Assembly (NCBI GenBank): GCA_003525075.1
Contig: DQFO01000008.1
Span: 6,287 to 70,286 of the forward strand
Direction of reading: 5' to 3'
Source of the DNA: Clostridiales bacterium
GTDB taxonomy: Bacteria > Bacillota > Clostridia > TANB77 > CAG-508
Length of the DNA: 64,000 nt
The position numbers were made by a program, and so were the translations under genes. A model generated the notes under the pieces. That model had not been told where the DNA came from. It searched no databases and saw only the letters and a program-made list of their open reading frames with translations. This document shows positions 37,741 through 59,859 of this stretch, in pieces; the stretch's first letter is position 1; each line of letters opens with the position of its first letter.

Positions 37741-37764
37741 AACTTAGATGTTATTGACAATTCA

Positions 37765-40943: not shown

Positions 40944-41014
40944 ACTATTTCTCTTCCTTTCTCACTTCATTCAAAAACATAGCTAGGTATGAAAGATTTA
41001 AAATTTCTTTCAAA

Positions 41015-41164
41015 CTATTTTTCTTCCATTTCATCTCTTTCTGCATCTTCCTTTGTAATAACATTATTATATACTTCTTCTATTATTTCATCACTTTCAT
41101 CATTTTCTTGAATTTGTTTTAATTTTAAATATTCTCTCATTTGCGCTGTTTTATTGTCTTGCAT
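41015..41164 (-). CDS. Small acidic hypothetical protein (49 aa)
   Basis: Not in the ORF track. AAGGAGGG lies 8 nt upstream of the ATG. It is wedged between the 153-aa and 815-aa genes on the same strand. Confidence 0.4.
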   Translation of the reverse strand: MQDNKTAQMREYLKLKQIQENDESDEIIEEVYNNVITKEDAERDEMEEK

Positions 41165-41178
41165 TCTTTCCACCCTCC

Positions 41179-41640
41179 TTAATTATTTTTTTTAAATAAT
41201 TTCATAATCTTACTTAGAATTTTCTTAAATATATTTTGTTCTTTATATTCAATAAGTTGTGTATACTCTTGATTAATTTTATTATCTTCAACTATTTGTC
41301 CTTTTTTCTTAAATAAATTATCTGGATTATATCTTTCCCTCAATTCTTCTTCTTTTCTTTTATCATTTTCAGAATAAAGTTTAATTAACTCTTTCTTTTC
41401 ATTTTCATCTTCACACCAATAATTAATATTTAACATTGCTAAAATTATTAAAGTTTTTTTCTGCAATTTTTGCTCATCTAGTGGTATAGTTGGCTCTATA
41501 TTAGGCTTATAGTCTTTCAATTTTTCTTCTCTAAATAATTCCATTAATTTTAATGGTATTTTATCTATATATTTTGGTTCCATAAAAGATAAAATCTCAT
41601 ATACTTCTGCATAAGCAATTGATAATTCATTATTTTCCAT
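41179..41640 (-). CDS. Hypothetical protein (153 aa), first gene of the three-gene orphan module
   Basis: GGGAGA RBS. Helical and charged, with no recognised motif. Confidence 0.5.
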   Translation of the reverse strand: MENNELSIAYAEVYEILSFMEPKYIDKIPLKLMELFREEKLKDYKPNIEPTIPLDEQKLQKKTLIILAMLNINYWCEDENEKKELIKLYSENDKRKEEELRERYNPDNLFKKKGQIVEDNKINQEYTQLIEYKEQNIFKKILSKIMKLFKKNN

Positions 41641-41679
41641 ATAATTTCTCCCATTTCAATTATTTTTACTCAATCTATC

Positions 41680-41703
41680 TATAATCTTAAATTTAAGATT
41701 ATA
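41680..41703. promoter_or_regulatory. Perfect 24-nt palindrome (tATAATCTTAAATTTAAGATTATa), a putative operator over the transcription start of the orphan module
   Basis: The sequence is self-complementary. It lies 4 nt downstream of a TTGAGA-17-TATAAA promoter (-35 at 41730-41735, -10 at 41707-41712, minus strand). Confidence 0.5.
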
Positions 41704-41871
41704 ATTTTTATAATTATTTATTTTTTTCTTCTCAAATATTTGTATATATCAATTATAAGCTATATTGTTAAATAAATCAATGTTATTTTTATTCATTAAG
41801 TTATATACTTAATGAATTTTTTGATATATTTTTTATACATAGCAATAAAAAAATTTCAATAATTTACTATA

Positions 41872-41918
41872 TTCAAAAAAATAATCATAAATTATTAAAA
41901 ATCTTTAATAATTTATGA
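41872..41918 (-). terminator. Terminator of the ABC ATPase/permease operon
   Basis: A 15-bp perfect stem (tcataaattattaaa / tttaataatttatga) followed by a T-run on the minus strand, just after the permease stop codon. Confidence 0.7.
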
Positions 41919-41926
41919 CTATTTTT

Positions 41927-44485: not shown

Positions 44486-44488
44486 TTA

Positions 44489-45160
44489 TTACACCTCCTC
44501 AACAATTTTTCCATCTTCAATTTTTATAATTCTATCTGCAACTTTTGCTATTTCTAGATTGTGTGTTATCATTATTATTGTTTGTTTATAATCTTTATTT
44601 GATTTTTTTAATAATGTTACAATTTCATCACTTGCTTTAGAATCCAAATTTCCTGTTGGCTCATCTGCTAATATAATTGCTGGATTTGTTATCATTGCTC
44701 TTCCTATTGATGTTCTTTGTTGTTGACCTCCTGATAATTCATTTGGTAAATGTGTTCTTCTTTCTTCTAATCCTAATACTTTTATTAATTCATCAAGTCT
44801 TTGTTTATCTATATTTTTGTTATCTAATTTTAATGGTAATGTGATATTTTCTTCTACATTTAATATTGGTATTAAATTATAAAATTGATATATTAATCCA
44901 ACTTGTCTTCTTCTAAATATTGCTAGTTCATCATCATTAAATTTATAAATATCTTTTCCGTCTATAAATACTTTTCCACTTGTTGGTCTATCAACTCCTC
45001 CTATTAAATGTAATAGTGTTGATTTTCCACTTCCTGATGCTCCTACTATTGCTACAAATTCACCTTTATTTACTGTAAATGAAACATTATCTAATGCTGT
45101 TACTTTATTTTCTCCTTTTCCATATTGCTTACATAAGTTTTCAACTTTTAATATTTCCAT
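44489..45160 (-). CDS. ABC transporter ATP-binding protein (MacB/LolD-like)
   Basis: GASGSGKSTLLH, LSGGQQQRTSIGRA and ILADEPTGNLD. Its stop is 3 nt from the permease start. Confidence 0.92.
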   Translation of the reverse strand: MEILKVENLCKQYGKGENKVTALDNVSFTVNKGEFVAIVGASGSGKSTLLHLIGGVDRPTSGKVFIDGKDIYKFNDDELAIFRRRQVGLIYQFYNLIPILNVEENITLPLKLDNKNIDKQRLDELIKVLGLEERRTHLPNELSGGQQQRTSIGRAMITNPAIILADEPTGNLDSKASDEIVTLLKKSNKDYKQTIIMITHNLEIAKVADRIIKIEDGKIVEEV

Positions 45161-45317: not shown

Positions 45318-46892
45318 TCATCTTTGTTCCAATATTTTCAATAAAAAATTCCATGGTCCTGTTTTATCTGTTAATCCATCATAATTATTATTAATTCTTT
45401 CTAATACTTCCTCTTTAGTAAAAAATTTTATTTCTGAAACTTCCTCTTCTTGTAATTTAACTTTTGATATGTCTATGTTTTTTGTAATCAAATAACATTC
45501 ATTAAATTGATTATTAGTAATCTTTCCTTTTGTTGTTTTTGAACATGATCCAACTAAATATTTTATATCCTTATCACATATATCTATTCCAAGCTCTTCC
45601 TTACATTCTCTTATTAATGCTTGTCTACCAAATTCTCCTGAATCAACATGTCCTCCAACTGTTACATCCCATAAATTAGGCCATAATTTTTTGTTTGCAC
45701 TTCTTTTTTGAAGTAATATATTTAAATCTTTATCTATAACAAATGCATATACACATCTATGCCACAAACCTTTTTTATGACACTCTTCTCTTGTTTCTAT
45801 TATTCCTGTAAATTCTCCTCTTTCATTTAAAACATCTAATTTTTCTTTTTTCATATATTCTGTAACTTCTTTTTCTAATCTTGTCCCGATTTCATCTAAA
45901 TGTTCATATAAATATCTACATAAATTAGTTCTAAAAATTGCAAAGTTTAATAATTCTGTTTGTTCATAATTTTCATTATATTGCTTATATCCATATAAGC
46001 TTCCCACAATTTGTATTAAATAAATATATGCACAATATTTTAAATCAAATTCATTTAATTTTACATATTTTGAAACTTCCCTAACATATTCTATAAAAGT
46101 ATCTATATTCATCTCTCCATTTTTTACATCTTTATCAATATATGTATATGATCTTATTATTTCCCACATTATTGGTAATCTCTTTGCAGATTCAAAATCA
46201 ATTACTGATGTTTCTTTTTCATTATTATATATCAATTGTTGAACACTATAATCTCCATGACTATTCATTATTGACATTTTTGAAATAATTGAAAAATCAA
46301 ATTGTTCTTTTAGTTTTTTTGAAATTTTAATTTTATTTTCTAAATCTTTTAAGAAAACTTCTTTATATTTATTATCTTTTTTTATTGATTTCTTAAAGTC
46401 TTCCATTTGAATTATTTTATTTTCTAAACTTTCTTTTGAAAACCATTTTTCAATTATGTTTTCATCATCAAGTTTTTTATATTTTTGAAGCTCTTTTATT
46501 ATTCTTCCAAGTATTGTTGCACTTTCTATCACTTTATCATGATCACCTGTATTATTCTCAATTGTATATCCATCGATAAATTTTTGGAGTATTATTATTT
46601 CATTTTCATATTTTATATAAAATTCATTTGATTTTGTTTTTATGTATTGAGGAACACTTATTTTTCTACATCTCAAAAAGTTAATTATTTGTATCTCTTT
46701 TTCTATAGATTCTTCTTTTCTGCTTTCATCAAATTCTTTTAATATATATTTTTGTTCATCTTCAGCAAAAATTATATATATATTTGCTGTTCCTTTTTCT
46801 ATTTTTTCAATTTTATTTACAGCTATTTCATACTTTTCTTGTAACATATTTTTTATTTTAACTTCATTTAATTTTGATTTATATATTGACAT
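45318..46892 (-). CDS. Fusion protein: APH/choline-kinase-like phosphotransferase domain plus C-terminal NUDIX hydrolase domain
   Basis: Kinase catalytic region NSHGDYSVQQLI...VIDFESA. The Nudix domain has GLWHRCVYAFVI...GGHVDSGEFGRQALIRECKEELGI. The start is set at the ATG 6 nt after GGAGA (the tracked ORF starts at a TTG 4 codons upstream). Confidence 0.75.
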   Translation of the reverse strand: MSIYKSKLNEVKIKNMLQEKYEIAVNKIEKIEKGTANIYIIFAEDEQKYILKEFDESRKEESIEKEIQIINFLRCRKISVPQYIKTKSNEFYIKYENEIIILQKFIDGYTIENNTGDHDKVIESATILGRIIKELQKYKKLDDENIIEKWFSKESLENKIIQMEDFKKSIKKDNKYKEVFLKDLENKIKISKKLKEQFDFSIISKMSIMNSHGDYSVQQLIYNNEKETSVIDFESAKRLPIMWEIIRSYTYIDKDVKNGEMNIDTFIEYVREVSKYVKLNEFDLKYCAYIYLIQIVGSLYGYKQYNENYEQTELLNFAIFRTNLCRYLYEHLDEIGTRLEKEVTEYMKKEKLDVLNERGEFTGIIETREECHKKGLWHRCVYAFVIDKDLNILLQKRSANKKLWPNLWDVTVGGHVDSGEFGRQALIRECKEELGIDICDKDIKYLVGSCSKTTKGKITNNQFNECYLITKNIDISKVKLQEEEVSEIKFFTKEEVLERINNNYDGLTDKTGPWNFLLKILEQR

Positions 46893-46957
46893 TTTTTTCT
46901 CCAATCATAATTTTACTTTTTTCTTTACTTCTCCATATATTTTTAATACTTTCAAAA

Positions 46958-48109: not shown

Positions 48110-48172
48110 TTTTTACTATTTTAATTTTTTGGTGTTTATTTCAACTTATATAAATATTAGTAACCTTTCCAA

Positions 48173-48382
48173 TTACTGGTTTTTACCACAGCAGTTTTTG
48201 TACTTTTTACCACTTCCACATGGACTGTTCCCTTCAGTATATATAGTACATATAGTATTTATAGTATTATTTGTATTTCAAGTCTTTTTCAGACAAGTAA
48301 CTTTTGGTATATATAGTATTTATTTTATTATCAGTATTTATTCCCTGCGAACATTTTGTGAACATTGTTCGCAATATTTCAT
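48173..48382 (-). pseudogene. Degenerate small gene ending in a SEC-C motif (..[17 protein letters not shown]); no intact reading frame
   Basis: The minus strand has an ATG (MKYCEQCSQNVRRE*) followed by two frame changes. The last 34 codons (48173-48277) have no start codon. The first Zn-ligand Cys of the CxC is Ser. Internal AATACTATA-type repeats are present. Confidence 0.4.
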
Positions 48383-48459
48383 CTTACTATATTAATTATA
48401 TAATTACTTATATATAATTTCAAGTCAAAAATTCTATTTTCTTGTAATTTTATTAATCT

Positions 48460-50673
48460 TTATTGGCTTATAATATCAAGTGTATGCATTGCTCTTGTAC
48501 AAGCCACATACAATAATTTTGTATCTAAAATATTTTCACTATATTTATTAGAATCTGAAATAATAACACTATCAAACTCTAAACCTTTTGACAAATATGA
48601 AGGTATAATAATTGTTCCTCCAGTATATTTATCCAAATTTTCTGATATTAATTTTATATCAACTTCATAATTAGTAAGCTTTTTATGTAATTCTATACTT
48701 TCATCAAAGTCTTTTGTGATTACTGCAATATTTATATGTCCCGCTTCTAAGTGTGTTTTTATTATTTCATATATTTTTGATATTTTGCTATCTTCGCTAT
48801 CAATTTTCCAATGTTCTATTTTATCCCCATGTCTCTCAATTGGTTGTGCTAGGATAATATTTTCATTATCAACAATTTTATTTATTATTGTATTCGCTTC
48901 ATTCATAATTTCCATAGATGTTCTATAACTCTCTTTTAAATATTCTATTGATGCTTTATTATTAAAAACTATTTGATTAAGTTTATTCCAATTATTTATT
49001 CCTTTGTAAGAATATATCCCTTGTGATATATCTCCTAAAATGGTCATAGACATATTAGGTTTAACTATTTCTTTGAAATTATAAAATTGAAATTCTCCCA
49101 AATCTTGAGCTTCATCAATAACAATATGTTCTAGCTTTAAATTATTAATATTCCCCAAAAATCTATTTTGGATATAAAATAATGGTGCTAAATCTTCGTA
49201 TTCAACTTTTTTGCTTTTTATATTCTTTTTATATGTTTCTAAAATATATTCATATAATTCAGATTCAACATATTTATCAAATAAAATTTTATCACTTATA
49301 ATTTTTTTATATATTGATAAAACCTTTTCTATTTTAAAGTTTTTCAAATAATCTAATACTAATTTTTTTCCACCTTTAAAAAGTTGTTGCATTTCATATT
49401 CTTTTTCTTTAAAAATTTCTAATCTTATTTCTTTTACCTTATCATCACTTAAATTTTTGTCTATATTATATAATTTACTCTTTCTCTGTTCTGACAATCT
49501 ATCTATTAATTCATTTGCAATATTACTAACTCTTTTTTGCAATATTGCTGTTAGCATTTTTTTGCTATCGTTTATCGAATTATTTTTAAAGTAATTTATA
49601 AACATATCTATAACCTCATCATGATTAAATACTACTATATCAGAAATTTTAAAATCTCCTTTTGGCAAATTGCTTTTTAAGAATTTATCAATAAATTCAT
49701 CTATTAATTCTTTAAATCTTAAAGAAGATTTGAAATTTGCAGATTTTTTTATTAAATCTGTTTTTCCATTTTGATTAACTATATTAGACAACTCAACATT
49801 TATTGGATTAATTTCAAAATTTGCATCAATGTTTTCAAGCATAAATTCTTCAAATGTTTGCTGTCTTACATAGTCTACCCCTAAATCTGGTAATACATTT
49901 GAAATATAGTCTAGAAAAAATTTATTAGGAGCAATAATTAAAAATTCATCTGGATTAAATTCTTTTTCATAAGTATATACCAAATAAGCTATTCTATGTA
50001 ATGCTACTGTTGTTTTACCAGAACCTGCCACACCTTGAACAATAAGAGGATTTGACATTTTAGCTCTAATGATTTTATTTTGTTCTGACTGTATTGTAGA
50101 AATAATATTTTTAAGTCTAGCTTCAGAATTTTCATTAAGACATTCTTGTAAAAATTCATCATTTGTAGTTATATCTATATCTTGGTAATCCTTTAATATA
50201 GAATTTTCAATAGTATAAACTCTTTTTTTGCTTAAGTCGCCTTTTATTATTCCATCTGGACATTCATATTTAACTTTTCCTAATTGTCCATCATAATATA
50301 TACTTGCAATTGGTGCTCTCCAATCTGTAACTATTACATCATATTTATCATTTAAAATTCCTGTTTTACCAATATAAATTTTTCTTTCATTGTTAGCATT
50401 GTTTTCTTTAAAATCAATTCGAGCAAAATATGGTATAGAAATTGCTTTATTTAAATTTTTTAACTTATTGCTATATTCTTTACTCATATTTTGAATATAT
50501 TGTTCATCGGCATTTCCTTTTAATAAATTACTATACAATATTTCATATTCTTTTATATTGTTTTTCACAATTTCTATTGTATCAGATACTCTTTTTATTT
50601 CCTCATTATCTATCATTTTCTTTTCCAATCTATATAACTTCTTTTTAACTAAAATATAATACCATTTTTTCAT
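48460..50673 (-). CDS. helD: HelD-type UvrD-family helicase (RNA polymerase recycling ATPase-like)
   Basis: 737 aa. The HelD-specific N-terminal motif is FARIDFKE...IYIGK...VTDWRAPIASIYYD, with Walker A GVAGSGKTT, DEAQD and the C-terminal LYVACTRAMH. The exact start is uncertain. Confidence 0.8.
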   Translation of the reverse strand: MKKWYYILVKKKLYRLEKKMIDNEEIKRVSDTIEIVKNNIKEYEILYSNLLKGNADEQYIQNMSKEYSNKLKNLNKAISIPYFARIDFKENNANNERKIYIGKTGILNDKYDVIVTDWRAPIASIYYDGQLGKVKYECPDGIIKGDLSKKRVYTIENSILKDYQDIDITTNDEFLQECLNENSEARLKNIISTIQSEQNKIIRAKMSNPLIVQGVAGSGKTTVALHRIAYLVYTYEKEFNPDEFLIIAPNKFFLDYISNVLPDLGVDYVRQQTFEEFMLENIDANFEINPINVELSNIVNQNGKTDLIKKSANFKSSLRFKELIDEFIDKFLKSNLPKGDFKISDIVVFNHDEVIDMFINYFKNNSINDSKKMLTAILQKRVSNIANELIDRLSEQRKSKLYNIDKNLSDDKVKEIRLEIFKEKEYEMQQLFKGGKKLVLDYLKNFKIEKVLSIYKKIISDKILFDKYVESELYEYILETYKKNIKSKKVEYEDLAPLFYIQNRFLGNINNLKLEHIVIDEAQDLGEFQFYNFKEIVKPNMSMTILGDISQGIYSYKGINNWNKLNQIVFNNKASIEYLKESYRTSMEIMNEANTIINKIVDNENIILAQPIERHGDKIEHWKIDSEDSKISKIYEIIKTHLEAGHINIAVITKDFDESIELHKKLTNYEVDIKLISENLDKYTGGTIIIPSYLSKGLEFDSVIISDSNKYSENILDTKLLYVACTRAMHTLDIISQ

Positions 50674-50712: not shown

Positions 50713-50741
50713 TTGAGAAAATCAATATTTTATGTTATAAT
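50713..50741 (+). promoter_or_regulatory. Candidate promoter (TTGAGA-17-TGtTATAAT) of the pyrophosphatase-like gene
   Basis: -35 at 50713-50718 and extended -10 at 50736-50741. Confidence 0.5.
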
Positions 50742-50787: not shown

Positions 50788-51126
50788 ATGGACGATTTCA
50801 AAAAATATATTGGCAAAAAAATAACTGTAACAATAGACAGAAAAATGGGTTCAAAGCATCCAAAATGGGGATTTATCTATCCGAATAACTATGGATATAT
50901 TCCTAACACAATAAGTGGCGACGGTGAAGAACTGGATGCCTATGTTCTTGGAGTTTTCGAACCTGTTGAGTCATTTGAAGGCATTTGTATTGCAGTACTG
51001 CACCGTTTGACGGATGATGATGACAAGCTCATAGTCGTTCCTGAAGACGTTAATTATACAGATGAACAAATTAATGCTCTCACAGAATATCAAGAAAGAT
51101 TTTTCAAACATATTATTATTAGATAG
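50788..51126 (+). CDS. Truncated inorganic-pyrophosphatase-like protein (112 aa)
   Basis: The start is at the ATG 7 nt after AGGAGG (the tracked ORF begins at 50713). NYGYIPNTISGDGEELDAYVLG resembles the family I PPase NYGFIP..DGDPLDVLV motif, but the protein is about 60 aa shorter. It looks richer in G+C than its neighbours. Confidence 0.5.
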   Translation: MDDFKKYIGKKITVTIDRKMGSKHPKWGFIYPNNYGYIPNTISGDGEELDAYVLGVFEPVESFEGICIAVLHRLTDDDDKLIVVPEDVNYTDEQINALTEYQERFFKHIIIR

Positions 51127-51141
51127 CTTTTTATTTAAAAT

Positions 51142-51177
51142 CCTCACTTATTTTATTAAATTAAGTGAGGTATTTTT
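51142..51177 (+). terminator. Terminator (cctcactta / taagtgagg plus T-run)
   Basis: A 9-bp perfect stem followed by TATTTTT. Confidence 0.65.
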
Positions 51178-51210
51178 GTTATTCTAGTCACCATAATAAC
51201 TTTCCATTTA

Positions 51211-51239
51211 TTGACAAATTAGTTTAAATATAGTATAAT
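51211..51239 (+). promoter_or_regulatory. Consensus promoter TTGACA-17-TATAAT of the guanylate-kinase-like gene
   Basis: -35 at 51211-51216 and -10 at 51234-51239. Confidence 0.6.
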
Positions 51240-51272
51240 TGTACTATATTATTTATAGAAGGATGTTAAGAA

Positions 51273-52043
51273 ATGAAAAAATTTGATGTAATAAAGAGAG
51301 GTAATGATCAAATTCTTGTAATATCTGGTGCAAGTGGTGTTGGCAAAACTACAACATGTGCATTACTTGGTATGTTATACCCTGCTAATTATGTACATAT
51401 TCCTTTCGACAGAAGTAGAGCATCAAGACCTGGAGAGTTTGGTTCAAGGCATGTCGATTTAGATATAATGCAGGAAAAATATGATTCTGGAGAATATTTT
51501 AACATTGCTCCTGTAACACATGGTGGATTTGCTGCGATTAGAACCTCAGATATACAAAAAGCATTTTCAGAAGGAAAAATTGCAGTATTAGAATATCCAA
51601 TAGAACAAATAGATGTATTAGAAAAAACTTTTTCAAATGCTCAAGTAACTGGTGTTGAATTAGTTGCGCCATCTGAAAAAGAGCGATTTAGAAGACTAAA
51701 AAAGGATCATAAATATACAGACCATCGTATTGAAAGTGATAAGTTCGGCTCTGGTAGAATTGATAGATATAAAAATGATGATTTGCTTACTTTAGATGAC
51801 CATAATTTAGTATTGATTACTGAAAGAGATAGACTTGGAGATACTGTATATGAAATTCATCGTTATATGAAAATACAAACTCTTACATTATCTAAGCTAC
51901 AAAAAATAGAAAAAGATGATGGTATTAGTGGTGTTCAAAGTTTTTTAAAATCTCTTCGCGTTCCAAAACATGATTATACTCAATCTGAGCATTATGAATT
52001 TTTAGAAAATAAATTACCAAAAACAGAAGATTTTGAGAGATAA
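51273..52043 (+). CDS. Guanylate-kinase-like nucleoside monophosphate kinase (256 aa, with a C-terminal extension)
   Basis: P-loop ISGASGVGKTT. RSRASRPGEFGSRH, GKIAVLEYPIEQ and APSEKERFRRL are collinear with Gmk TTRxPRxGExxGxxY / ildid.qG / PPS...L..RL. Confidence 0.6.
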   Translation: MKKFDVIKRGNDQILVISGASGVGKTTTCALLGMLYPANYVHIPFDRSRASRPGEFGSRHVDLDIMQEKYDSGEYFNIAPVTHGGFAAIRTSDIQKAFSEGKIAVLEYPIEQIDVLEKTFSNAQVTGVELVAPSEKERFRRLKKDHKYTDHRIESDKFGSGRIDRYKNDDLLTLDDHNLVLITERDRLGDTVYEIHRYMKIQTLTLSKLQKIEKDDGISGVQSFLKSLRVPKHDYTQSEHYEFLENKLPKTEDFER

Positions 52044-52068
52044 ATACTCTCAAAATCTTCTGTCTTTT
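52024..52068. terminator. Shared bidirectional terminator of the convergent kinase genes
   Basis: A 16-bp perfect stem (cagaagattttgagag / ctctcaaaatcttctg). The stop codon of the plus-strand gene sits in the loop. Confidence 0.7.
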
Positions 52069-52676
52069 CACATATCTTTCAAAAAATTATTATCATTAAT
52101 TATTACATTAATTGTTTGTTCTAAATCAATATCAGTAGTATCAATAGTCTTAGTATTAGGAAAGTATTCCAATACTATTTTTTTATAAATTTGCTCTCTT
52201 CGTTCAAATTTATCAGTATCCATAATTAACTTATCTGAACCAGTAATCTCATTACCTGATTTTGCTCTTGCTTGAAATCTTTTTATTCTTTCATTCATAC
52301 TTACAGTAATATAAAATGAATCCATTTCTGGATATTTTTTTAATAATTCTTTTAATATAATTATTTCTTCTTCATCCTGTTTATCGTTTTTTTCAATTTT
52401 GCCAGCTAAATATTTTATTATCCATAACGAATCTAGTAGTATTAATCCATTTTCTTTATATTCTTTTATATCCTTTTGTATATTTTCTTGAAGTAGTGGT
52501 TTCCATTCTTCTGGAGATAACCATGTGTCTCTTTTTCTTACATTTTCTATTAAATCAATTGGAGTTAAGAATTTCTTTTTAATACTAAATTTACTTGGCA
52601 TTTTTTCATTTATACCATTAATAATAGTTGTTTTTCCTGAAAAATCCATTCCACTAAACAATTTAATTTTAGACAT
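52068..52676 (-). CDS. P-loop kinase, thymidylate/deoxynucleoside-kinase-like (202 aa)
   Basis: Walker A FSGMDFSGKTT at the N-terminus, about 200 aa. It is the last gene of the radical SAM operon (5-nt gap to the upstream gene). Confidence 0.5.
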   Translation of the reverse strand: MSKIKLFSGMDFSGKTTIINGINEKMPSKFSIKKKFLTPIDLIENVRKRDTWLSPEEWKPLLQENIQKDIKEYKENGLILLDSLWIIKYLAGKIEKNDKQDEEEIIILKELLKKYPEMDSFYITVSMNERIKRFQARAKSGNEITGSDKLIMDTDKFERREQIYKKIVLEYFPNTKTIDTTDIDLEQTINVIINDNNFLKDM

Positions 52677-52681
52677 GTCTT

Positions 52682-53320
52682 TTATTCCTTTTCTATCTTA
52701 TTTTTTATAAATTCTAATATTTTATCTATCCCTTGCTCTACTGATAAATCTGAAGATGTATCAATTATTATATTATCTTCCAATTCATTTGCTTTATTTA
52801 CAAGTTCATTATATACAATTTTAAAAAATTCAGGATTATCTCTATAAAAGTCATGTACTGGTGATTCTTTACTTTGAGCCATTCTTTCCTTTATTATTTC
52901 AAATGGTGGAATACAAAACACACTTAATGATGGCTCAATTAATATATCGTTTTCTACAAATGCTTTTGGTATATCATAAATATTATAATCAGTTTTAATG
53001 TAATCTCCATATGCTTTTATATATGTTGTTATTGCATCAAAATATCTATCTTGTAACACAATTGTATTTTTCTTTGCCAAATAAGGTTTAATAATATTTT
53101 TAGTATTTATTATTAGATCAGTAAAAAAATATGAAACAGTAATTGGCATATCTTTTTTCCCTAAATTCTGTTTAAACTTTTTTCCTAAATCAGTATATGT
53201 CATTGCACCATGATTATATACAGTTTCATATCCTAATTCTTTTATTCTTTCACTTAATAATTTGGTTGTTGTTGTCTTTCCACTACAACATATTCCTTCA
53301 AATACTATAAAATTATTCAT
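52682..53320 (-). CDS. Thymidylate-kinase-like P-loop kinase (212 aa)
   Basis: FIVFEGICCSGKTTTTKLL resembles the Tmk motif EGxDGxGKTT. Size and layout match the NMP/dNMP kinase fold. Confidence 0.55.
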   Translation of the reverse strand: MNNFIVFEGICCSGKTTTTKLLSERIKELGYETVYNHGAMTYTDLGKKFKQNLGKKDMPITVSYFFTDLIINTKNIIKPYLAKKNTIVLQDRYFDAITTYIKAYGDYIKTDYNIYDIPKAFVENDILIEPSLSVFCIPPFEIIKERMAQSKESPVHDFYRDNPEFFKIVYNELVNKANELEDNIIIDTSSDLSVEQGIDKILEFIKNKIEKE

Positions 53321-53328
53321 TTTTACTC

Positions 53329-53988
53329 CTATCTGTTATTTAAAACAGTATATCCTCTAAAATATTTGCTGTCTTTTGTTAGTTCTATTGGAAGTTGTGC
53401 ATTTGAAATCAAGTTATTAACTTTTATCAAATGCCTATCATAATCATAATCTACATTTGTTGTATTTGGATTTTTCCAATCTTCTATTTCAAGCATTTCT
53501 TCGTAAACTGAATTTGATTCATCTTTTTCAAAATATTTAACTTTGTCATAAGAGACATATAAACGATCACCATCTTTTTCCACTATGCTCACTTCTCTTT
53601 TCATATTTGCAAATAATTTTATGTTTAATTGACCTTTTACATCTATATTTAATTCTTTAATAAATTCATTTACATCTTTATATTGACCTCTTAATTTAGT
53701 TCCAAGCTCCAGTTTAGATACATAAGGTTTTTGGGGATTACATTTGTTTGTCTTGTATAAAAAACCTTTAAATTGTTCGGTAACCATATTGCTACCTCTC
53801 ATAACATCTCCTCTTTTTAATATAGAAAAATCATTATCATCATAGTAAGTTTCGTGTTTTTCTTTTTCAAAACTTTCAACTAATTTATATCCATTTTCGC
53901 AAAGAAATTCAAGAAATTGTTTTGAAGTATATTTTTCATTCTTCTTTATTAAATATTTAAGTTCTCTTTCATAATTTTCAAATTCCAT
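53329..53988 (-). CDS. CYTH-domain (triphosphate tunnel metalloenzyme) protein
   Basis: N-terminal ExExK signature (YERELKYLI) and a ~220-aa protein of alternating charged strands. Confidence 0.5.
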   Translation of the reverse strand: MEFENYERELKYLIKKNEKYTSKQFLEFLCENGYKLVESFEKEKHETYYDDNDFSILKRGDVMRGSNMVTEQFKGFLYKTNKCNPQKPYVSKLELGTKLRGQYKDVNEFIKELNIDVKGQLNIKLFANMKREVSIVEKDGDRLYVSYDKVKYFEKDESNSVYEEMLEIEDWKNPNTTNVDYDYDRHLIKVNNLISNAQLPIELTKDSKYFRGYTVLNNR

Positions 53989-54009
53989 ATAAAATACCTC
54001 TTTTCAATT

Positions 54010-54804
54010 TTATTTAACACTTATAAATACTCCTGTTTCTCTTGGAATACTTATAGCACCATCTTTTATTCTTATATCTTCAAAATAATTATATAAATTT
54101 AATAAACTTTCATCCGAATAACCTGAAATAGATTTAGTTGATTTCAACCATTCTATCAAGTCTTGTGTATTAGTTATTGCAAGTATATTTTCATAATCAA
54201 ATCTTTGCACATTTTCAAAGTATTTGCCTAAAATTTCACAACCATTTTGAAGATTAAAAGGTAACTGTTCTGTAAATGCAGTAGATGTCGGCTCAAATCT
54301 TACTATCGCATTATGTAGAAATGGTCTCATTCCACCATTACCATCTGTTGCAGAATAAAATACTCCATTGTCTTTCAATACTCTTTTTACTTCTAGTAAT
54401 GCTTTATTTAAATCTGGTACATGAAATAACATATGGTTTGCAATTACAATATCAAATGTTTCATCTTCAAACGGAATTTCTTGTATATCAATTTTTTTAA
54501 TTGAAACATTTTCATTTGCAGAAAATTTTTCTCTAACTAAATCTAACATACCTTCTGAAAAATCTGATAATACTAAACTACAACCATCTGGCAAAGTTTC
54601 AATTTTTCCTTCCCAATGACTTCCATTTCCACATCCTAATTCTAATATTTTCATATTTTTTTTAAAAACATATTTATCAAATAACCAATCTGCAAATTTA
54701 TACTTATTAGTGGTGTATTTTTTATAAAAATTAATCCTCATAGCTAAATTTTTATCATTTGAAAATTGATTTTTAACATTTTTAGTTACATTCATAATTG
54801 CCAT
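54010..54804 (-). CDS. Class I SAM-dependent methyltransferase
   Basis: Motif I ILELGCGNGSHW, then LSDFSEGML and the post-II IVIANHMLFHV. Confidence 0.8.
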   Translation of the reverse strand: MAIMNVTKNVKNQFSNDKNLAMRINFYKKYTTNKYKFADWLFDKYVFKKNMKILELGCGNGSHWEGKIETLPDGCSLVLSDFSEGMLDLVREKFSANENVSIKKIDIQEIPFEDETFDIVIANHMLFHVPDLNKALLEVKRVLKDNGVFYSATDGNGGMRPFLHNAIVRFEPTSTAFTEQLPFNLQNGCEILGKYFENVQRFDYENILAITNTQDLIEWLKSTKSISGYSDESLLNLYNYFEDIRIKDGAISIPRETGVFISVK

Positions 54805-54816
54805 ATATATACCTCC

Positions 54817-56604
54817 TTATCTTATAAACGGATTTTCTTTACCATCATAATTTAAGTCATATTTTTCACACAATGCTTGTCCACTTCTATTTATTGAACT
54901 ATAAAAATCTGAATTACTACCAATTTGAGCCATAACCTTGTCATTAAGTTCTTCCTCTGTAATCCCTTTCTCTACATTATCTAAAACCATTTTCATAAAG
55001 TCTAAATCTTTTAACTTTAATTGATAATATAAGTCATAAAAAGATTTTTCTCCAGCTGAATCAATGGCTTTTGGAGATGAAATAGGATCGATAATCATAT
55101 CATATAACTTCATGTGTGATTTATGCCATTTTTTTAAAGCATTATATGTTAATTTCACTTTTGTATCCACAATTTCATATTTATTATTATCATATACATC
55201 ATTTTTAACAATCTTATCTTCCTTTTTTAACTTTTCAGTATATAAAGTTCCGTCTGCTGCAAACATCTCAGAAAAAATTCCTTTTGTTATAATCCAATCA
55301 TATTCTCTTAAGAACTCATAATTTTCTTTTAATTCTTCAAAAGTAGTATTATCATCAAATAAAATGAAACCTGCTTGAACATAAATTCCATGTTTTTTTA
55401 GGATATCTAATGCCCTTTTATTGTCTTCTAAACTAGCACTCTTGTTCATTCTTTTTAATGCCGTATTAGAACCATTTTCAATTCCACAAGCAAATGAATG
55501 AAATCCTGCTTCTTTTAAATATTTTATTTTTTCATCTTCAACCTGATCTGCTTTTAAAGATCCTCTTAATGAAACATTAATTCCTCTTGATTTTATTTTT
55601 TCACAAAATTCTTTTGCCCACTGTTCATTTCTTTCTTGTTCTAAGAAACTATCATCTATAACCTTAATGTACTTAACTCCCATATTTTGAAGTTGCTCCA
55701 ATTCATCTACAATACTATCAACACTTCTACCTCTCCATTTTCTTCCGTTAGATAACTTATTAAAAGCATTGACTGAACAAAATAAGCAATTTCCCATGCA
55801 ACCTCTTGCCGTTAAAATATTTACCGTAGATTTTCTATCTTTTGCCATATTCATAGTATCTCTTGCAGGAAATGGTATAACATCCAAATCAGATATTAAA
55901 TCTCTTTTTTCTGTTCTTACTGTTTTTCCATCTTTCTCAAAAACTATACCTTTTATATCTTCAATTTTTCTGTCTGAGTTTTCAGTAAAATAATCAGATA
56001 CTTCAACAATAGATTCTTCTCCCTCTCCAATCATTGCAATATCAAATACACCATCTTTTACAAATTTTTGAGGATTAAATGATGGTCCAAAACCACCACA
56101 CATTAATTTTATTTCTGGTCTAACTTCTCTTATTCTTTTTGCTAGTTCTATTGATTTATCATTGTTTGACATATAACATGAAACACCAACGATAGCTACC
56201 TCTTTATCATTTAAAATTCTTCTTAATACTTCTTCATCACTTAATCCTCCTAGCCATCCATCAATTATCTCAACATTATATCCTCTTTTTCTTAAAACAG
56301 CAGTCAAATAAGCTAATCCTAGATTCTCTTCAGAAGTTCTATGTGTATCTGGTGATAAAGTTGTTAAAATAATTTTATTTTTTCTTTTTCTCATAATATT
56401 TTGAAGGTATTTCTGATATTCTTGAATATTGCTATCATCATCTCCTTCAATATGGATAATTAATTTTGATTTATCCATAATAACACATTTTCCATCATGT
56501 GTTGTAAAAAGAAAGTCATTATCTTCATAGTTTAGTCTACACATATTTTTAACTTTTTCATTAGTAAGAGTCATATTTTTTCTAACGATAATTTCAGATT
56601 CCAT
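54817..56604 (-). CDS. B12-binding-domain radical SAM enzyme (class B type) with a ~75-aa N-terminal extra domain
   Basis: A Rossmann-like cobalamin-binding region (IVGVSCYMSN...KLMCGGFGPS) is followed by the radical SAM cluster motif ARGCMGNCLFCSV (CxxxCxxC). Confidence 0.8.
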   Translation of the reverse strand: MESEIIVRKNMTLTNEKVKNMCRLNYEDNDFLFTTHDGKCVIMDKSKLIIHIEGDDDSNIQEYQKYLQNIMRKRKNKIILTTLSPDTHRTSEENLGLAYLTAVLRKRGYNVEIIDGWLGGLSDEEVLRRILNDKEVAIVGVSCYMSNNDKSIELAKRIREVRPEIKLMCGGFGPSFNPQKFVKDGVFDIAMIGEGEESIVEVSDYFTENSDRKIEDIKGIVFEKDGKTVRTEKRDLISDLDVIPFPARDTMNMAKDRKSTVNILTARGCMGNCLFCSVNAFNKLSNGRKWRGRSVDSIVDELEQLQNMGVKYIKVIDDSFLEQERNEQWAKEFCEKIKSRGINVSLRGSLKADQVEDEKIKYLKEAGFHSFACGIENGSNTALKRMNKSASLEDNKRALDILKKHGIYVQAGFILFDDNTTFEELKENYEFLREYDWIITKGIFSEMFAADGTLYTEKLKKEDKIVKNDVYDNNKYEIVDTKVKLTYNALKKWHKSHMKLYDMIIDPISSPKAIDSAGEKSFYDLYYQLKLKDLDFMKMVLDNVEKGITEEELNDKVMAQIGSNSDFYSSINRSGQALCEKYDLNYDGKENPFIR

Positions 56605-56616
56605 ATTAACTCTCCT

Positions 56617-57729
56617 TTATTTTTTTGGTTTTCCTATCCAAGTGCATAAATAATTTTCATGTACTAATTTTTTATTACTTTTTTTATAGTCAATATTTTT
56701 ATCAATCTCAATATCTTTAAAGCAAAATGGATCTCGTGCGTATAAATCTTTTTCACCTGTTTCACATTTTTTATATGTATATGCCATTGCAAAGCAACCA
56801 CCTCTACATATTTCAGCTTTGTCGCAATCTTTACAACTTTCAATATTTTTATAATTTTCTTTTCTAGTTTTAAAAGCTTTAAATTGCTCTGAATTTATAA
56901 TATCAAATATATCATCTTTTAATAAATCACCAACTCTATAGTCATGCATATATACACATGGAGATACAGGTATTTTTCCATCTGGAGTTATAGAATTTAT
57001 TCTCATTGAATAGATTCCACAAGCACATCCTTTAACTTTATTATTTTGCTTTAGTCCTGATAATGTTGGTTCACTTAATTCAACAGTATCACATTTTTCA
57101 AATAAATATTTATAATTTTCTAACACTTGTTCTTTTGAAGGTACAAGTTTAAAATGTTGTAATTGTATTGGTTTAAGTAAATTAAATCTTATATTAGAAT
57201 CATATTTTTTGGCTATTTCTAATAATGCATCTATTCTGTCTTTTGTAAAGTTCCAGTTCATTGCACACATTATAATTCCTGATTCAATATTGTATTCTTT
57301 ACAAATTTCTAATGCTTGAATAGCATATTTATAAACATCTCCACCTCTATTTTCATTATGTTCTTTTTCGAAAGGTGAATCAAAGCTAATATCTACATCA
57401 TTTAATAATTCTAAGCATTCTGGATATGTATTTTTTAATGCAATAAGGCTTATTCCAGCAGTTGTTATACCTACCTTTATATTTCTTTTATTTAGCTCTT
57501 TTAATATATATGGTAGCATACTTTTTTTAACATCCAAACCATTAGTAAAAATTGGTTCATTACCGCCTAAATTAACTGTTTCAACATTTAATTTTTCAAT
57601 TTGTTCTATAACCTTATCAACTATTTCTTTCGTTAAATTTTTTCCTTTCTGTCTAACTGAAAAAGAATAACAATGTTTACATTTACATGGACAGTCATTT
57701 CCTAATGTCCAGCCTATATTTTTTATCAT
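56617..57729 (-). CDS. Radical SAM enzyme with a C-terminal SPASM/twitch-like Cys-rich domain
   Basis: N-terminal CPCKCKHCY (CxxxCxxC). C-terminal cysteines occur in CACGIYS, SPCVY and CKDCDKAEICRGGCFAMAY. Confidence 0.8.
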   Translation of the reverse strand: MIKNIGWTLGNDCPCKCKHCYSFSVRQKGKNLTKEIVDKVIEQIEKLNVETVNLGGNEPIFTNGLDVKKSMLPYILKELNKRNIKVGITTAGISLIALKNTYPECLELLNDVDISFDSPFEKEHNENRGGDVYKYAIQALEICKEYNIESGIIMCAMNWNFTKDRIDALLEIAKKYDSNIRFNLLKPIQLQHFKLVPSKEQVLENYKYLFEKCDTVELSEPTLSGLKQNNKVKGCACGIYSMRINSITPDGKIPVSPCVYMHDYRVGDLLKDDIFDIINSEQFKAFKTRKENYKNIESCKDCDKAEICRGGCFAMAYTYKKCETGEKDLYARDPFCFKDIEIDKNIDYKKSNKKLVHENYLCTWIGKPKK

Positions 57730-57755
57730 ATAAAAATACCTCCATTTTCAACAAA

Positions 57756-57784
57756 ATTATACCATTTTATGTAAATTCTGTCAA
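57756..57784 (-). promoter_or_regulatory. Consensus promoter TTGACA-17-TGgTATAAT of the radical SAM operon
   Basis: Read on the minus strand: -35 at 57779-57784 and extended -10 at 57756-57761, about 25 nt upstream of the GGAGG RBS. Confidence 0.65.
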
Positions 57785-57895
57785 ATGGATTTTTATAATT
57801 AACCATTAAAATTCAGCTAAAAATATGTATTTACATTATTTTTAATTGAAAGCCATAAAACGATCTTAAACTAAAATCCATTTTATGGCTTTCTA

Positions 57896-58525
57896 CTAAT
57901 CTATTTGTTCTAAGTTAATCAATTCATTTTTTCTAAAAGTCAATTTTAATAAACATGGTGATTTTATATTTAATATTAAATCATCTTTGTAAACAAGTTT
58001 AACATTTTCATTTACCTTACACCAATTTAACAAAAAGAATTTTATTGAACCTCCATGGCTAATTACTGCAATTCTTTTTCCTTCATATTCTTTAAGTATT
58101 TTATCAAAAAAAATATTCATTCTTTCTCTAGTTTGCTCTGCACTTTCTCCATCAGATGTTCTAAATGTTCTATCTAATAATTGTTCTTGTGAAGGATCTC
58201 TTGTTTTTTTATCCTTCATAAATTCTCCTAATTCTTTTAAATTTCCTAGTTTTCTTTCACTTAAGTTATTATCTAAATTAAAAATTAAATTATTTTCATA
58301 TGCAATATATTTTGCTGTAGCCTTAGCTCTAGTATAACTGCTTGACCAAATAATATCTAAATTTTTCAATTCATTATTTTTACTTAATTTTTTTGCTTGT
58401 TCCTCTCCTTCTACTGACAAGATTTCTTTTTCATTAATCATTTGTGAATCTTCATTTGTATTTCTAATACCATTTTCGTCAACAGTTTCAGCATGTCTAA
58501 CTAAATATATTATTGTATCTTTCAC
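57896..58525 (-). CDS. Histidine phosphatase family protein (phosphoglycerate-mutase-like)
   Basis: IYLVRHAET (RHG-type motif) and a downstream ISHGGSI. GTG start 9 nt after GGGGGA. Confidence 0.75.
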   Translation of the reverse strand: MKDTIIYLVRHAETVDENGIRNTNEDSQMINEKEILSVEGEEQAKKLSKNNELKNLDIIWSSSYTRAKATAKYIAYENNLIFNLDNNLSERKLGNLKELGEFMKDKKTRDPSQEQLLDRTFRTSDGESAEQTRERMNIFFDKILKEYEGKRIAVISHGGSIKFFLLNWCKVNENVKLVYKDDLILNIKSPCLLKLTFRKNELINLEQID

Positions 58526-58606
58526 TTTACTTTCCCCCTCTTTTCTTTTTTATTATAACAATAGAAACAATATATTTCAATCATTTATTACAAATCATTT
58601 TTTAAT

Positions 58607-59859
58607 TCAATAATTCATAATCTCATCTATTACATCAGATTTCATAATTTCTTCTAACATATCATTTGCTTCTTTTCTTGTTTCATCTGAGCTTGATATA
58701 TAATAATTTTCAGTTGTTTCTATTCTACTATGACCTAAAATATCTGCAACATCTCTAATTTCTGCTCCATTTCGTAGAATCTTAGTTGCATAACTTCCTC
58801 TTAAATCATAAAATCTACAATTCTTTATTCTAAGTTCATTATGTATTATTTTAAAAGGATATTTTATAATATCTGTTCCTACATATAATCCATTATTTTT
58901 TGTAAATACCATTTCTACACTTTTTAAATTTTTATATTTACCTTCAACAATTTTATATTCATTTATTTTTCCGTATTCATTTTTAATAGGCTCTAATTCA
59001 TATTTCTTATACTTTCTGCCATATTTCTTTTTTAATAATTTTTGTTTTTCTTTATAATTAGATAATATTTTATATAAAGTATCACATATGAAAACCTCTC
59101 TACAACTATCATTTGTTTTAGTGGTTCCTAAAAACCATCTTCCTTTATCATCTTTTATTTTGGAATATACTGTTTTATTTATTTTTATAATTTTGTTTTC
59201 TAAATCAATATCATCCCAAGTTAATGCAAATACTTCTCCTGTTCTCATACCGGTATAGCAAGCTGTTAAAAAAGCACATATAAATGTATTATTATTCTTA
59301 AATCTTAATAAAATTTTATCAATTTCTTCTTGAGAATAAATATGTTTTATACCGTTTTTTTTGTTTCAAACGAAAGTATTTTAGGAATTTGTAATTCTAC
59401 TGCTGGATTATATTTCAAAAATCCAAAATGATTTGTTGCATCCCTAAAAGAACTTTTTATTACTTTTTGATAATTTCTTACTCCTTCTTTAGTCTTACAC
59501 TTTTGAGCAATTTTCAATAATGACTGATTTAGCAAAAATGGTGTAATAAAACTTAATTTGTATTTTCCTATTTCCTCTTTTAGAACTTTAAAAGTTTCTT
59601 TATATCTCTTTGCTGTAGAATATTTGTAATTAATTTCAAAATATTCTTTCATCCAATAATCTAAATAATCTGCATAAGACATCTGTGAATCTTTAGTGTT
59701 GCCTCCATTTATATATTCATCATAAACTTTCATTCCTGCCATTAATGCTTCATTTTTGGTTTTGAATCCTGATTTGCTAATGTATTTTCGTTTTCCATCT
59801 ACTTTTGCTATTTCAAATTGATATTGATATACTTTACCACGTTTTCTAATATTTACCAT
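58607..59859 (-). pseudogene. int: Tyrosine recombinase/phage-type integrase, split by a frameshift in an A8 tract
   Basis: The N-terminal ORF (59347-59859) has an Arm/AP2-like DNA-binding domain and a SAM-like domain. The C-terminal ORF (58607-59248) has ACYTGMRTGEVFALTWDDI, HSRIETT and ENYY. The C-terminal frame is open upstream through KKNGIKHIYSQEEIDKILL... and meets the N-terminal frame at T8 (59355-59362); one extra A would fuse them. Confidence 0.8.

Follow-up and report, generated by a model that had tools for sequence, protein, structure and literature searches.

The window analysed here is a stretch of 64,000 nt from a Clostridiales bacterium (GTDB lineage Bacteria; Bacillota; Clostridia; TANB77; CAG-508; assembly GCA_003525075.1, contig DQFO01000008.1, positions 6,287 to 70,286 of the forward strand), and the coordinates given below are those of this window unless another locus is named. 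Between positions 48,460 and 58,525, it carried a cassette of ten genes (10.1 kb; list of open reading frames (ORFs) and block alignment) organized in at least four transcription units. Two radical S-adenosylmethionine (SAM) enzymes, one with a SPASM domain and one binding cobalamin (B12), were found together with a methyltransferase, three nucleoside monophosphate (NMP) kinase-like proteins, three putative phosphate-removing enzymes and a HelD-type RNA polymerase recycling motor. When 15 other loci were compared with the window by blastn, the shared block ended sharply at ~48,180-48,445 and at 58,525-58,604, the flanks being unrelated, and the nucleotide alignment placed the histidine phosphatase gene at one end of the block and the HelD gene (48460-50673) at the other. 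An earlier reading of these nucleotides, hereafter the original prediction, had described nine genes at 50,788-58,525 as a radical SAM operon and candidate modified-nucleotide system. The ORF list reproduced the nine ORFs, their coordinates and the 5-21 nt gaps of the six-gene run, the quoted motifs (CPCKCKHC, CMGNCLFC, ILELGCGNG, ERELK, FEGICCSGKTT, FSGMDFSGKTT and RHAET) were read directly, and the Radical_SAM and SPASM, B12-binding and Radical_SAM, class I methyltransferase, Thymidylate_kin, His_Phos_1 and Pyrophosphatase domains were all confirmed by Pfam. Its left boundary at 50788 was too short, as the conserved block reaches the HelD gene, which had been overlooked.

The HelD-type protein, encoded by the last gene of the block (48460..50673, minus strand; 737 aa), possessed intact Walker A (GVAGSGKTT) and Walker B (VIDEAQD) motifs and scored 474.5 bits against the NCBIfam model NF041464 (HelD_BACSU; cut-off 419); judged by this curated model, it is a bona fide class I HelD. 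Its linkage was assessed across 49 distinct loci with an orthologue of the B12 enzyme, 26 of which had at least 2.4 kb of flanking sequence on both sides. A HelD-like gene was directly adjacent in at least 21 of these 26 loci, from gut Clostridia to RF39-like Bacilli; 19 were called by the script and two (L010 and L051), scored negative because of ORF overlap and labelling, were added by eye. Three of the five loci without an adjacent HelD gene (L019, L023 and L085) ended in a recombinase or integrase, and the other two (L004 and L025) belonged to the type B layout described below. Two HelD-like genes adjoined the cluster in L034, L049 and L182, in the last case on the opposite side. In L028 and L031, the B12 enzyme was 81-82% identical to that of the window but the adjoining HelD was only 38-39% identical, so that a different HelD lineage occupies the same position. 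A pairing of HelD with the mini-pyrophosphatase of the cassette rather than with the radical SAM genes was also considered and rejected: most of 80 metagenome loci carrying this pyrophosphatase lacked both radical SAM and HelD genes. Since the mini-pyrophosphatase is widespread without HelD, the HelD link is to the radical SAM cluster itself.

The first gene of the six-gene operon (56617..57729, minus strand) encoded a 370-aa radical SAM/SPASM enzyme (PF04055 and PF13186), with the motifs CPCKCKHC and CKDCDKAEICRGGC read directly from the translation. The CX3CX2C motif lies at residues 13-20 and the CX2CX5CX3C motif at residues 299-312; PF13186 matched at 40.2 bits (cut-off 21.5), and C299, C302, C308 and C312 were invariant in 35 homologues. 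With a radical SAM core and a C-terminal CX2CX5CX3C domain, the protein is a SPASM-domain radical SAM enzyme by the class definition, and as its cluster motif starts at residue 13, it has no N-terminal recognition domain. Its best NCBIfam match was MftC (92 bits against a cut-off of 265), far below every curated cut-off. The predicted structure (predicted local distance difference test score, pLDDT, of 92.2) had as its top Foldseek matches the protein-modifying enzyme anSME (4.8e-12) and then the nucleoside enzyme BlsE (5.4e-12; 14% identity).

The second gene (54817..56604, minus strand) encoded a 595-aa cobalamin-binding radical SAM enzyme with the motif CMGNCLFC. PF02310 (64.9 bits, cut-off 32.1) followed by PF04055 (80.1 bits, cut-off 29.5) corresponds to the definition of a class B radical SAM enzyme, and the best NCBIfam match was BchE, at 161 bits against a cut-off of 481. 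OxsB, which catalyses the sugar ring contraction of 2'-deoxyadenosine phosphates and had been named as a precedent in the original prediction, was indeed the closest solved relative (5UL2; E = 1e-19 with the single sequence and 6.5e-21 with a profile). Residues 95-440 aligned to OxsB residues 137-500 at ~25% identity, and the N- and C-terminal domains of OxsB gave no significant alignment. OxsB and BchE, the two best characterized relatives, are among the few cobalamin radical SAM enzymes that do not methylate, and the substrates of OxsB are 2'-deoxyadenosine phosphates (PMC13598231). About 45 clusters of the B12 enzyme at 50% identity aligned over the full length, nearly all of them beginning at residues 73-78; residues 1-75 or so (56380-56604) form an N-terminal extension specific to the type A layout, that of the window.

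The third gene (54010..54804, minus strand) encoded a 264-aa class I SAM-dependent methyltransferase with the motif ILELGCGNG, which matched the Pfam families Methyltransf_11, _25 and _31 (E = 1e-19 to 1e-22) and passed no specific NCBIfam cut-off. For the next protein (53329..53988, minus strand; 219 aa), a CYTH fold had been proposed from the ExExK signature, which reads ERELK. No match was found in Pfam (E up to 0.01), NCBIfam, PADLOC, PHROG or PDB sequences, where phmmer returned chance calmodulin matches only; the assignment was upheld by AlphaFold and Foldseek. The top 17 structural matches of the model (pLDDT 92.2) were all triphosphate tunnel metalloenzyme (TTM)/CYTH proteins, led by YgiF (5a60; E = 7.5e-9, TM-score 0.66) and including SaTTM, class IV adenylate cyclases and thiamine triphosphatase. 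Fourteen residues were invariant in 31 homologues (E7, R8, E9, K11, K44, E46, R64, K87, K92, E94, R131, E163, E167 and E169), and the family comprised no more than 84 clusters, all unannotated. By its predicted structure, which shows the eight-stranded beta-tunnel fold, the protein is thus a divergent, unannotated TTM branch that the Pfam CYTH model does not detect. A relative with 48% identity occurred in L082 (655-7238; also L083 and L084) with a Tmk-like 202-aa protein and a 285-aa protein, without radical SAM genes, this trio being directly followed by Trypco1 and a 1258-aa Trypsin_2 protein.

The operon ended with two thymidylate kinase-like P-loop proteins, TmkA (52682..53320, minus strand; 212 aa; FEGICCSGKTT) and TmkB (52068..52676, minus strand; 202 aa; FSGMDFSGKTT). 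TmkA matched PF02223 at 45 bits (cut-off 27) and PDB thymidylate kinases over its full length (E = 2e-6), kept a DRY-type motif, and had PADLOC matches to VakA (5.5e-10) and PDC-M51B (2e-8). TmkB matched phrog_761, a thymidylate kinase, over residues 1-192 (E = 1e-5); its Pfam match was weak, its NCBIfam match was confined to the P-loop, and no PDB sequence match was found. A third, convergent gene (51273..52043, plus strand) encoded a 256-aa guanylate kinase-like protein that kept the RxxRPGE motif and matched PDB guanylate kinases (E = 6e-4); it fell below the cut-offs in NCBIfam (guanylate kinase, E = 8e-10) and Pfam (21 bits against 25). This gene was co-directional inside the operon in L085 and L086. 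The call of two Tmk-like proteins stood for TmkA, which passed the Pfam cut-off, and less firmly for TmkB; that of a guanylate kinase-like gene was backed by its PDB match and motif but not by Pfam. As graded from their sequences, TmkA appears to be a clear Tmk relative, the Gmk-like protein a candidate below the cut-offs, and TmkB a P-loop protein with a PHROG match.

Beyond the TTM, two further putative phosphate-removing enzymes were encoded. The first (50788..51126, plus strand) was a 112-aa mini family-I pyrophosphatase-like protein (PF00719, 43.8 bits against a cut-off of 23.5), covering positions 32-115 of the 153 of the Pfam model. It kept the YPxNYGxIPxT...DG(D/E)xxD...DDDDK core, with the DGD motif reading DGE, and lacked the N- and C-terminal segments of solved enzymes, which in the E. 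coli enzyme carry E20, K29, E31, Y141 and K142. The gene had been described as truncated; it is instead a complete family, the 112-aa form being conserved in dozens of loci at 54-99% identity. The family is also widespread in a stand-alone form (at least 474 confirmed metagenome matches, 63-80% identity), in many unrelated contexts (L093-L172) and sometimes next to histidine phosphatases (L137, L152 and L169). The second (57896..58525, minus strand) was a 209-aa branch 1 histidine phosphatase with the motif RHAET (PF00300, E = 8e-28), whose best NCBIfam match was the alpha-ribazole phosphatase CobC, at 73 bits against a cut-off of 163.

Gaps of 12, 12, 21, 8 and 5 nt separated the six operon genes on the minus strand (57729 down to 52068). 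A consensus scan of 50.5-59 kb found two perfect 12/12 promoters, both where the original prediction had placed them: TTGACA-17-(TG)TATAAT at 57784-57756 on the minus strand, before the six-gene operon, and TTGACA-17-TATAAT at 51211-51239 on the plus strand, before the guanylate kinase-like gene. The total number of promoter-like sites did not exceed that of shuffled sequence, and only perfect 12/12 matches carry weight. Weaker sites were an 11/12 match to the consensus alone (TTGAGA-17-TATAAT with an upstream TG; 50713..50741, plus strand) 5' of the mini-pyrophosphatase gene, within the 114 nt that separate this gene from the divergent helD, and an 11/12 match upstream of the histidine phosphatase gene (58580-58552, minus strand). 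The latter gene was also followed by a hairpin (57851-57890; agccataaaa...ttttatggct) and, having its own promoter and its own hairpin, forms a separate transcription unit. The hairpin expected between the convergent genes was present at approximately 52019..52067 and was longer than the 16 bp first described, with a 21-bp stem, a 7-nt loop (-29 kcal/mol, z = -6.74) and a U run on the minus strand; it is probably the terminator of both genes, and its AT-richness kept it from being picked up by a simple terminator scan. The -10 box of the operon ends 26 nt 5' of the ATG, which leaves no space for a riboswitch, and an Rfam search of 45-61 kb (E up to 1) returned no riboswitch or leader RNA, the only hits being two chance miRNA matches.

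Recombinases, integrases and insertion sequence elements adjoined many copies of the cassette. Neither direct nor inverted repeats of a convincing kind turned up at the block ends in a repeat search, and megablast found no match of the block in plasmid and phage collections. The left edge, just 3' of the helD stop codon (48129-48445), is AT-rich, with three copies of a ~30-nt repeat (GTATATATAGTA...), the AT-rich repeated part lying at 48,237-48,339, and a GCGAACA...TGTTCGC inverted repeat; it could be terminator or junction sequence. At the other end, a tyrosine integrase beside secA was split into two out-of-frame ORFs on the minus strand (58607-59248 and 59347-59859), corresponding to the N-terminal arm-binding and C-terminal catalytic parts. 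It was split in L012 and L014 as well, looks like a decayed integrase, and falls outside the block conserved elsewhere. An argument for horizontal transfer built on this secA flank was abandoned: the protein-level secA identity of L012 and L014 had been derived from incomplete ORFs and disagreed with the nucleotide alignment, and no claim is made from it.

On the far side of HelD, the window carried genes that were not conserved with the block. Two genes past HelD, a 528-aa protein (45318-46904, minus strand) fused an APH-type phosphotransferase to a NUDIX hydrolase, another pairing of a kinase with a pyrophosphohydrolase. A MacB/FtsX-type ABC transporter (41927-45160, minus strand) lay near a two-component pair of response regulator and histidine kinase (36505-38424), with proteins of 153 and 815 aa without a Pfam match in between; the set (36505-45160) resembles a peptide-antibiotic sensing and efflux module and was unlinked to the cassette at other loci.

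Relatives of the B12 enzyme numbered 485 in the protein collection, the best 120 being 77-98% identical, and a scan of one genome per species yielded 75 loci, nearly all in uncultured gut or rumen metagenome-assembled genomes (MAGs). Identity was 76-97% in Clostridia and 46-53% in RF39-like Bacilli, Mollicutes and Erysipelotrichaceae. The block recurred in its entirety, within differing genomic surroundings, in uncultured gut Clostridia, and orthologues of its radical SAM pair extended to RF39-like Bacilli and further Firmicutes. The proteins occurred in human, primate, rabbit and ruminant gut metagenomes, with single protein clusters holding hundreds of member sequences. In viral contigs (IMG/VR), the B12 enzyme alignment gave three matches at 25% identity and the CYTH alignment none.

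The ORFs of all loci were labelled by BLASTP against the window proteins, and several gene layouts could be distinguished. In type A (the window and ~20 species-level MAGs), the genes for the histidine phosphatase, SPASM enzyme, B12 enzyme, methyltransferase, TTM, TmkA and TmkB were followed by the opposite-strand Gmk-like and mini-pyrophosphatase genes and by HelD, downstream and divergent. Reshuffled versions had every gene on one strand and ended at an integrase (L085), or lay 3' of a group II intron with a NUDIX hydrolase in place of the mini-pyrophosphatase (L086-88). Type B comprised an HprK-like kinase, the SPASM and B12 enzymes, a deaminase-type amidohydrolase, also found in type E, and two mini-pyrophosphatases. 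In type C (~20 RF39-type loci), a LysR regulator, a SPASM-like radical SAM enzyme, an MTAP/PNP-like phosphorylase, a deoxyribosyltransferase-like protein, an HprK-related kinase, the B12 enzyme, a mini-pyrophosphatase and HelD were all encoded on one strand, HelD being downstream and co-directional, 24 nt from the pyrophosphatase gene, and scoring 423 bits (cut-off 419). L033 and L182 combined one or more HelD-like genes, upstream in L182, with an HprK-like protein, the B12 and SPASM enzymes, a pyrophosphatase and an amidohydrolase.

Layouts without the B12 enzyme (L171, L172 and L177) possessed the SPASM enzyme, the amidohydrolase, the HprK-like protein and a pyrophosphatase, to which L177 adds HAD and PHP phosphoesterases. 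In L177-L179 (8393-14418), the genes encoded a PHP protein, a 237-aa protein, the SPASM enzyme (86%), the amidohydrolase, the HprK-like protein, the mini-pyrophosphatase and a HAD protein, near rpsF-ssb-rpsR and relA; this SPASM protein was indexed in 999 blocks of the collection. In Treponema (L176), also without the B12 enzyme, the SPASM enzyme, amidohydrolase and HprK-like protein were accompanied by two HD proteins, and directly 5' of the SPASM gene lay an EF-G-like GTPase gene (5814-7868; 684 aa), a single instance that could be an ordinary fusA or a target-protection paralogue.

Three further loci associated related enzymes with exporters or parts of non-ribosomal peptide synthetases (NRPS). 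L174 encoded an MFS exporter, the SPASM enzyme (55%), a NUDIX hydrolase, the B12 enzyme (50%, full length) and an NRPS module, and L180 an A-PCP protein, two ABC exporters, PCP and KR proteins, the B12 and SPASM enzymes, a NUDIX hydrolase and an AMP-ligase, with AgrB/LytTR genes adjoining; in both, as in L086, the NUDIX hydrolase replaced the mini-pyrophosphatase. In Paenibacillus lutimineralis (L173), a SPASM enzyme (53%), an APH kinase, an adenosine deaminase, a sugar aminotransferase and a B12 enzyme at 27% identity were encoded with an ABC-2 exporter. What stayed constant across all layouts was the presence of one or more radical SAM enzymes, of one or more P-loop kinases and of a hydrolase cleaving pyrophosphate (mini-pyrophosphatase, NUDIX or HD), and the variable part consisted of enzymes for nucleosides, nucleotides or their phosphates. 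In this small sample, layouts with an exporter lacked HelD and those with HelD lacked an exporter, a pattern that fits two alternative ways to cope with a toxic product.

We favour, with a probability of roughly 0.42, the reading that the enzymes of the cassette make a toxic nucleotide analogue, one that disturbs transcription, and that HelD serves as self-protection. The OxsB-like enzyme, the kinase and phosphatase content and the swapping of accessory enzymes that handle nucleosides or nucleotides support a nucleoside or nucleotide substrate, an idea already put forward in the original prediction and a theme that all layouts have in common; the support for a nucleoside phosphate as the substrate is indirect. 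In the pathway we envisage, the OxsB-like cobalamin enzyme and the SPASM enzyme would act on a nucleoside phosphate, most likely of a purine, and remodel its sugar or base; the class I methyltransferase would add a further methyl group, and the three NMP-kinase-like proteins would raise an intermediate or the product to the triphosphate. The TTM, the mini-pyrophosphatase (NUDIX in other layouts) and the histidine phosphatase would remove phosphates, either freeing the nucleoside or holding the producer's own pool of toxic triphosphate low. The analogue would then interfere with transcription, and HelD would strip and recycle the stalled RNA polymerase of the producer, in parallel to HelR-type rifamycin protection and to the target-directed resistance genes of the oxetanocin cluster. 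HelD is described as clearing stalled transcription complexes and its HelR-type relatives as protecting the polymerase from rifamycins; a survey of HelD proteins reported that Clostridia express several paralogues, that the genes are transferred horizontally between gut bacteria and that they are linked to antibiotic resistance (PMC8655204). The occurrence of the orthologous enzyme trios in exporter and NRPS clusters points to a secreted product and argues that the trio builds a specialized metabolite rather than a housekeeping compound, and for this reason we lean slightly towards competitors over phages as the target. The more specific proposal, of a mobile gut cassette making a radical-SAM-derived nucleotide analogue against bacterial RNA polymerase with a dedicated HelD paralogue as immunity factor, is rather doubtful.

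Several points weigh against this reading. The proposed chemical steps are drawn from family membership at low identity: the similarity to OxsB amounts to ~25% identity over the B12 and radical SAM domains alone, and the fold search with the modelled SPASM enzyme, in which anSME was as close as BlsE, does not discriminate a peptide from a nucleoside substrate. By-products of the radical SAM enzymes, namely 5'-deoxyadenosine, methylthioadenosine (MTA) or S-adenosylhomocysteine, could be all that the MTAP-like and deaminase-like accessories remove, in which case these would speak less clearly for a nucleoside substrate. For a secreted antibiotic, the absence of an exporter from the conserved block is odd, and the setting of L177, in a core chromosomal region of a gut species of very high abundance, resembles metabolism more than warfare. 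To our knowledge, no HelD has been shown to rescue the polymerase from a nucleotide analogue. HelD was missing in about a fifth of the loci, and its adjacency could reflect co-mobilization rather than function, helD paralogues being numerous and horizontally mobile in gut Clostridia anyway (PMC8655204).

Among known systems, the oxetanocin A cluster (OxsB/OxsA, OxrA/OxrB), together with albucidin AlsB/AlsA, was the most similar: a small mobile cluster in which a cobalamin radical SAM enzyme remodels a nucleoside phosphate with the help of a phosphohydrolase. The oxetanocin cluster carries target-directed resistance genes and not an exporter. The differences are nevertheless substantial. The B12 enzyme of the cassette aligned to two of the four domains of OxsB and is not a full-length orthologue; the HD partner OxsA had no counterpart among the ten cassette proteins, HD proteins occurring only in the distant Treponema layout (L176), and its role would be taken by the mini-pyrophosphatase, the TTM and the histidine phosphatase. 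The cassette also adds a SPASM radical SAM enzyme, a methyltransferase and three kinases, and its resistance-type gene is HelD, acting on RNA polymerase, instead of OxrA/OxrB. By analogy, the cassette would work most like the oxetanocin cluster but is not a member of that system. BlsE of the blasticidin S pathway, the second-best fold match of the SPASM enzyme, shows that this fold is used on nucleoside substrates. The HelD protein passed the curated HelD model, and differs from known HelD/HelR factors in a link to a radical SAM/nucleotide cluster, conserved in Clostridia and RF39-like Bacilli, that the papers accessible to the search do not report.

The closest competing explanation is a viperin-type anti-phage defence, in which a poisonous or chain-terminating nucleotide would act inside the cell, the kinases supplying the triphosphate and HelD keeping the host polymerase running; we regard it as unlikely. 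The product of viperin systems is a modified nucleoside triphosphate that terminates transcription, and like the prokaryotic viperins (pVip/Vak), the cassette places a radical SAM enzyme beside NMP-type kinases on mobile DNA, as integrative-element cargo, in a block without an exporter and behind strong, constitutive-looking operon promoters. The original prediction had named viperins as a precedent, had taken the integrase-bearing island to fit defence or competition, and had proposed PADLOC as a check. PADLOC returned weak candidate matches only: pVip models to residues 5-169 of the SPASM enzyme, its N-terminal half (9e-11), VakA to TmkA (5.5e-10), and both components of PDC-M51, to the B12 radical SAM enzyme (4e-16) and a Tmk-like protein (2e-8). 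The PDC-M51 matches covered most of both profiles but scored low (57 and 32 bits), and the PDC systems are described as unpublished candidates (PMC11811056). Scores of this order reflect general family resemblance. No viperin model was among the 25 NCBIfam families listed for the SPASM enzyme, and the related enzyme of L035 scored 42 bits against the viperin model (cut-off 180). Viperins have no SPASM domain, whereas the cassette enzyme possesses two auxiliary-cluster motifs that viperins do not and has a further radical SAM enzyme, which depends on cobalamin, beside it; the SPASM enzyme is not a viperin. No known defence genes recurred in the flanks, and a phage relying on the host polymerase would gain from HelD too. 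The orthologous trios in NRPS and exporter clusters also stand against a defence role; the lack of a close relative in viral contigs neither supports nor excludes one.

The cassette might alternatively be an island for resistance to, or detoxification of, an external nucleoside-type inhibitor: its kinases, phosphatases, methyltransferase, deaminases and phosphorylases would inactivate the drug, and HelD would protect the target. Each non-radical enzyme is of a type used in drug modification or breakdown, the APH-NUDIX fusion, the MacB-type ABC pump and the two-component system adjoin the block in the window, and HelR confers rifamycin resistance, with helD paralogues spreading horizontally in the gut (PMC8655204). 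These neighbouring genes were not conserved with the block, and the conserved core consists of two costly, oxygen-sensitive radical SAM enzymes, one of them cobalamin-dependent, whose orthologues lie in biosynthetic clusters with NRPS parts; such an island is improbable.

About as improbable is a role in salvage or cofactor metabolism, that is, the recycling of radical SAM by-products or the making of a cofactor (for example a cobamide lower ligand, a menaquinone made through a futalosine-like route or a hopanoid-like adenosyl adduct), with HelD a bystander. The histidine phosphatase was nearest to CobC, enzymes resembling MTAP and 5'-deoxyadenosine/MTA deaminases were present, the layout without the B12 enzyme occurred in a core chromosomal neighbourhood of an abundant gut species, and the MqnE-MqnB and HpnH-HpnG-HpnJ pathways follow a comparable logic, adenosyl-radical addition followed by deaminase or nucleosidase steps. 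No protein, CobC-like phosphatase included, reached a curated cofactor-family cut-off, the cassette is patchy and mobile, and the three NMP-type kinases, the TTM and HelD would be left unexplained.

There is still less to be said for hypermodification of the cell's own DNA or RNA, whereby a modified (deoxy)nucleoside triphosphate would be incorporated and HelD would help the polymerase on the modified template. Kinases that lead to a triphosphate are typical of phage- or island-borne hypermodification pathways, and HelD is known to clear stalled transcription complexes (PMC8655204), but no layout included a polymerase, a glycosylase/transglycosylase or a restriction partner, phosphate-removing enzymes dominated the accessory set, and orthologues lay in exporter clusters.

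Least probable of all is the tailoring of a peptide made by ribosomes and altered after translation (RiPP), encoded elsewhere or overlooked and perhaps one blocking the secondary channel of the polymerase, by the SPASM and B12 enzymes: the curated families nearest to the SPASM enzyme are peptide maturases (MftC and GeoRSP), its top fold match was anSME and in types B and C the HprK-related kinases look like those of RiPP-like cassettes (ScmC, HprK_rel_B), but all NCBIfam scores were far below the cut-offs, RRE/PqqD domains, proteases and leader-type genes were absent from every layout, the SPASM enzyme has its radical SAM motif from residue 13 onwards, and BlsE was as close in fold as anSME. 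In a listing of every ORF of 20 aa or more between 50,600 and 58,700, the lone intergenic candidate (57726-57806) overlapped the promoter, and no RRE was found. The original argument against a RiPP was thus supported, and this does not look like a cofactor locus either, both radical SAM proteins falling far below the NCBIfam cut-offs and the gaps containing no plausible precursor ORF.

No description of this cluster was found in the full-text literature, in which subscription journals are mostly uncovered and the word 'held' swamps queries for HelD, and the HelD survey mentions no such gene neighbourhood (PMC8655204). The conserved HelD partner is the feature absent from the searchable literature, and the remainder of the cassette would be kin to radical-SAM nucleoside and nucleotide analogue pathways. 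Few cobalamin radical SAM enzymes acting on nucleotides are known to us, namely OxsB and AlsB, whose products are an antiviral and a herbicide. If confirmed, the cassette would provide a nucleotide antimetabolite scaffold, a self-resistance principle and a handle for genome mining, in the form of helD beside radical SAM genes. The HelD linkage points to transcription as the target and offers a testable answer to why many Firmicutes keep several expressed helD paralogues. Should the more specific proposal of a dedicated HelD paralogue as immunity factor be true, protection of the target against transcription inhibitors of the nucleotide type would be a general function of HelD proteins, and the many helD paralogues of Firmicutes that lack an explanation could be markers of loci for such compounds.

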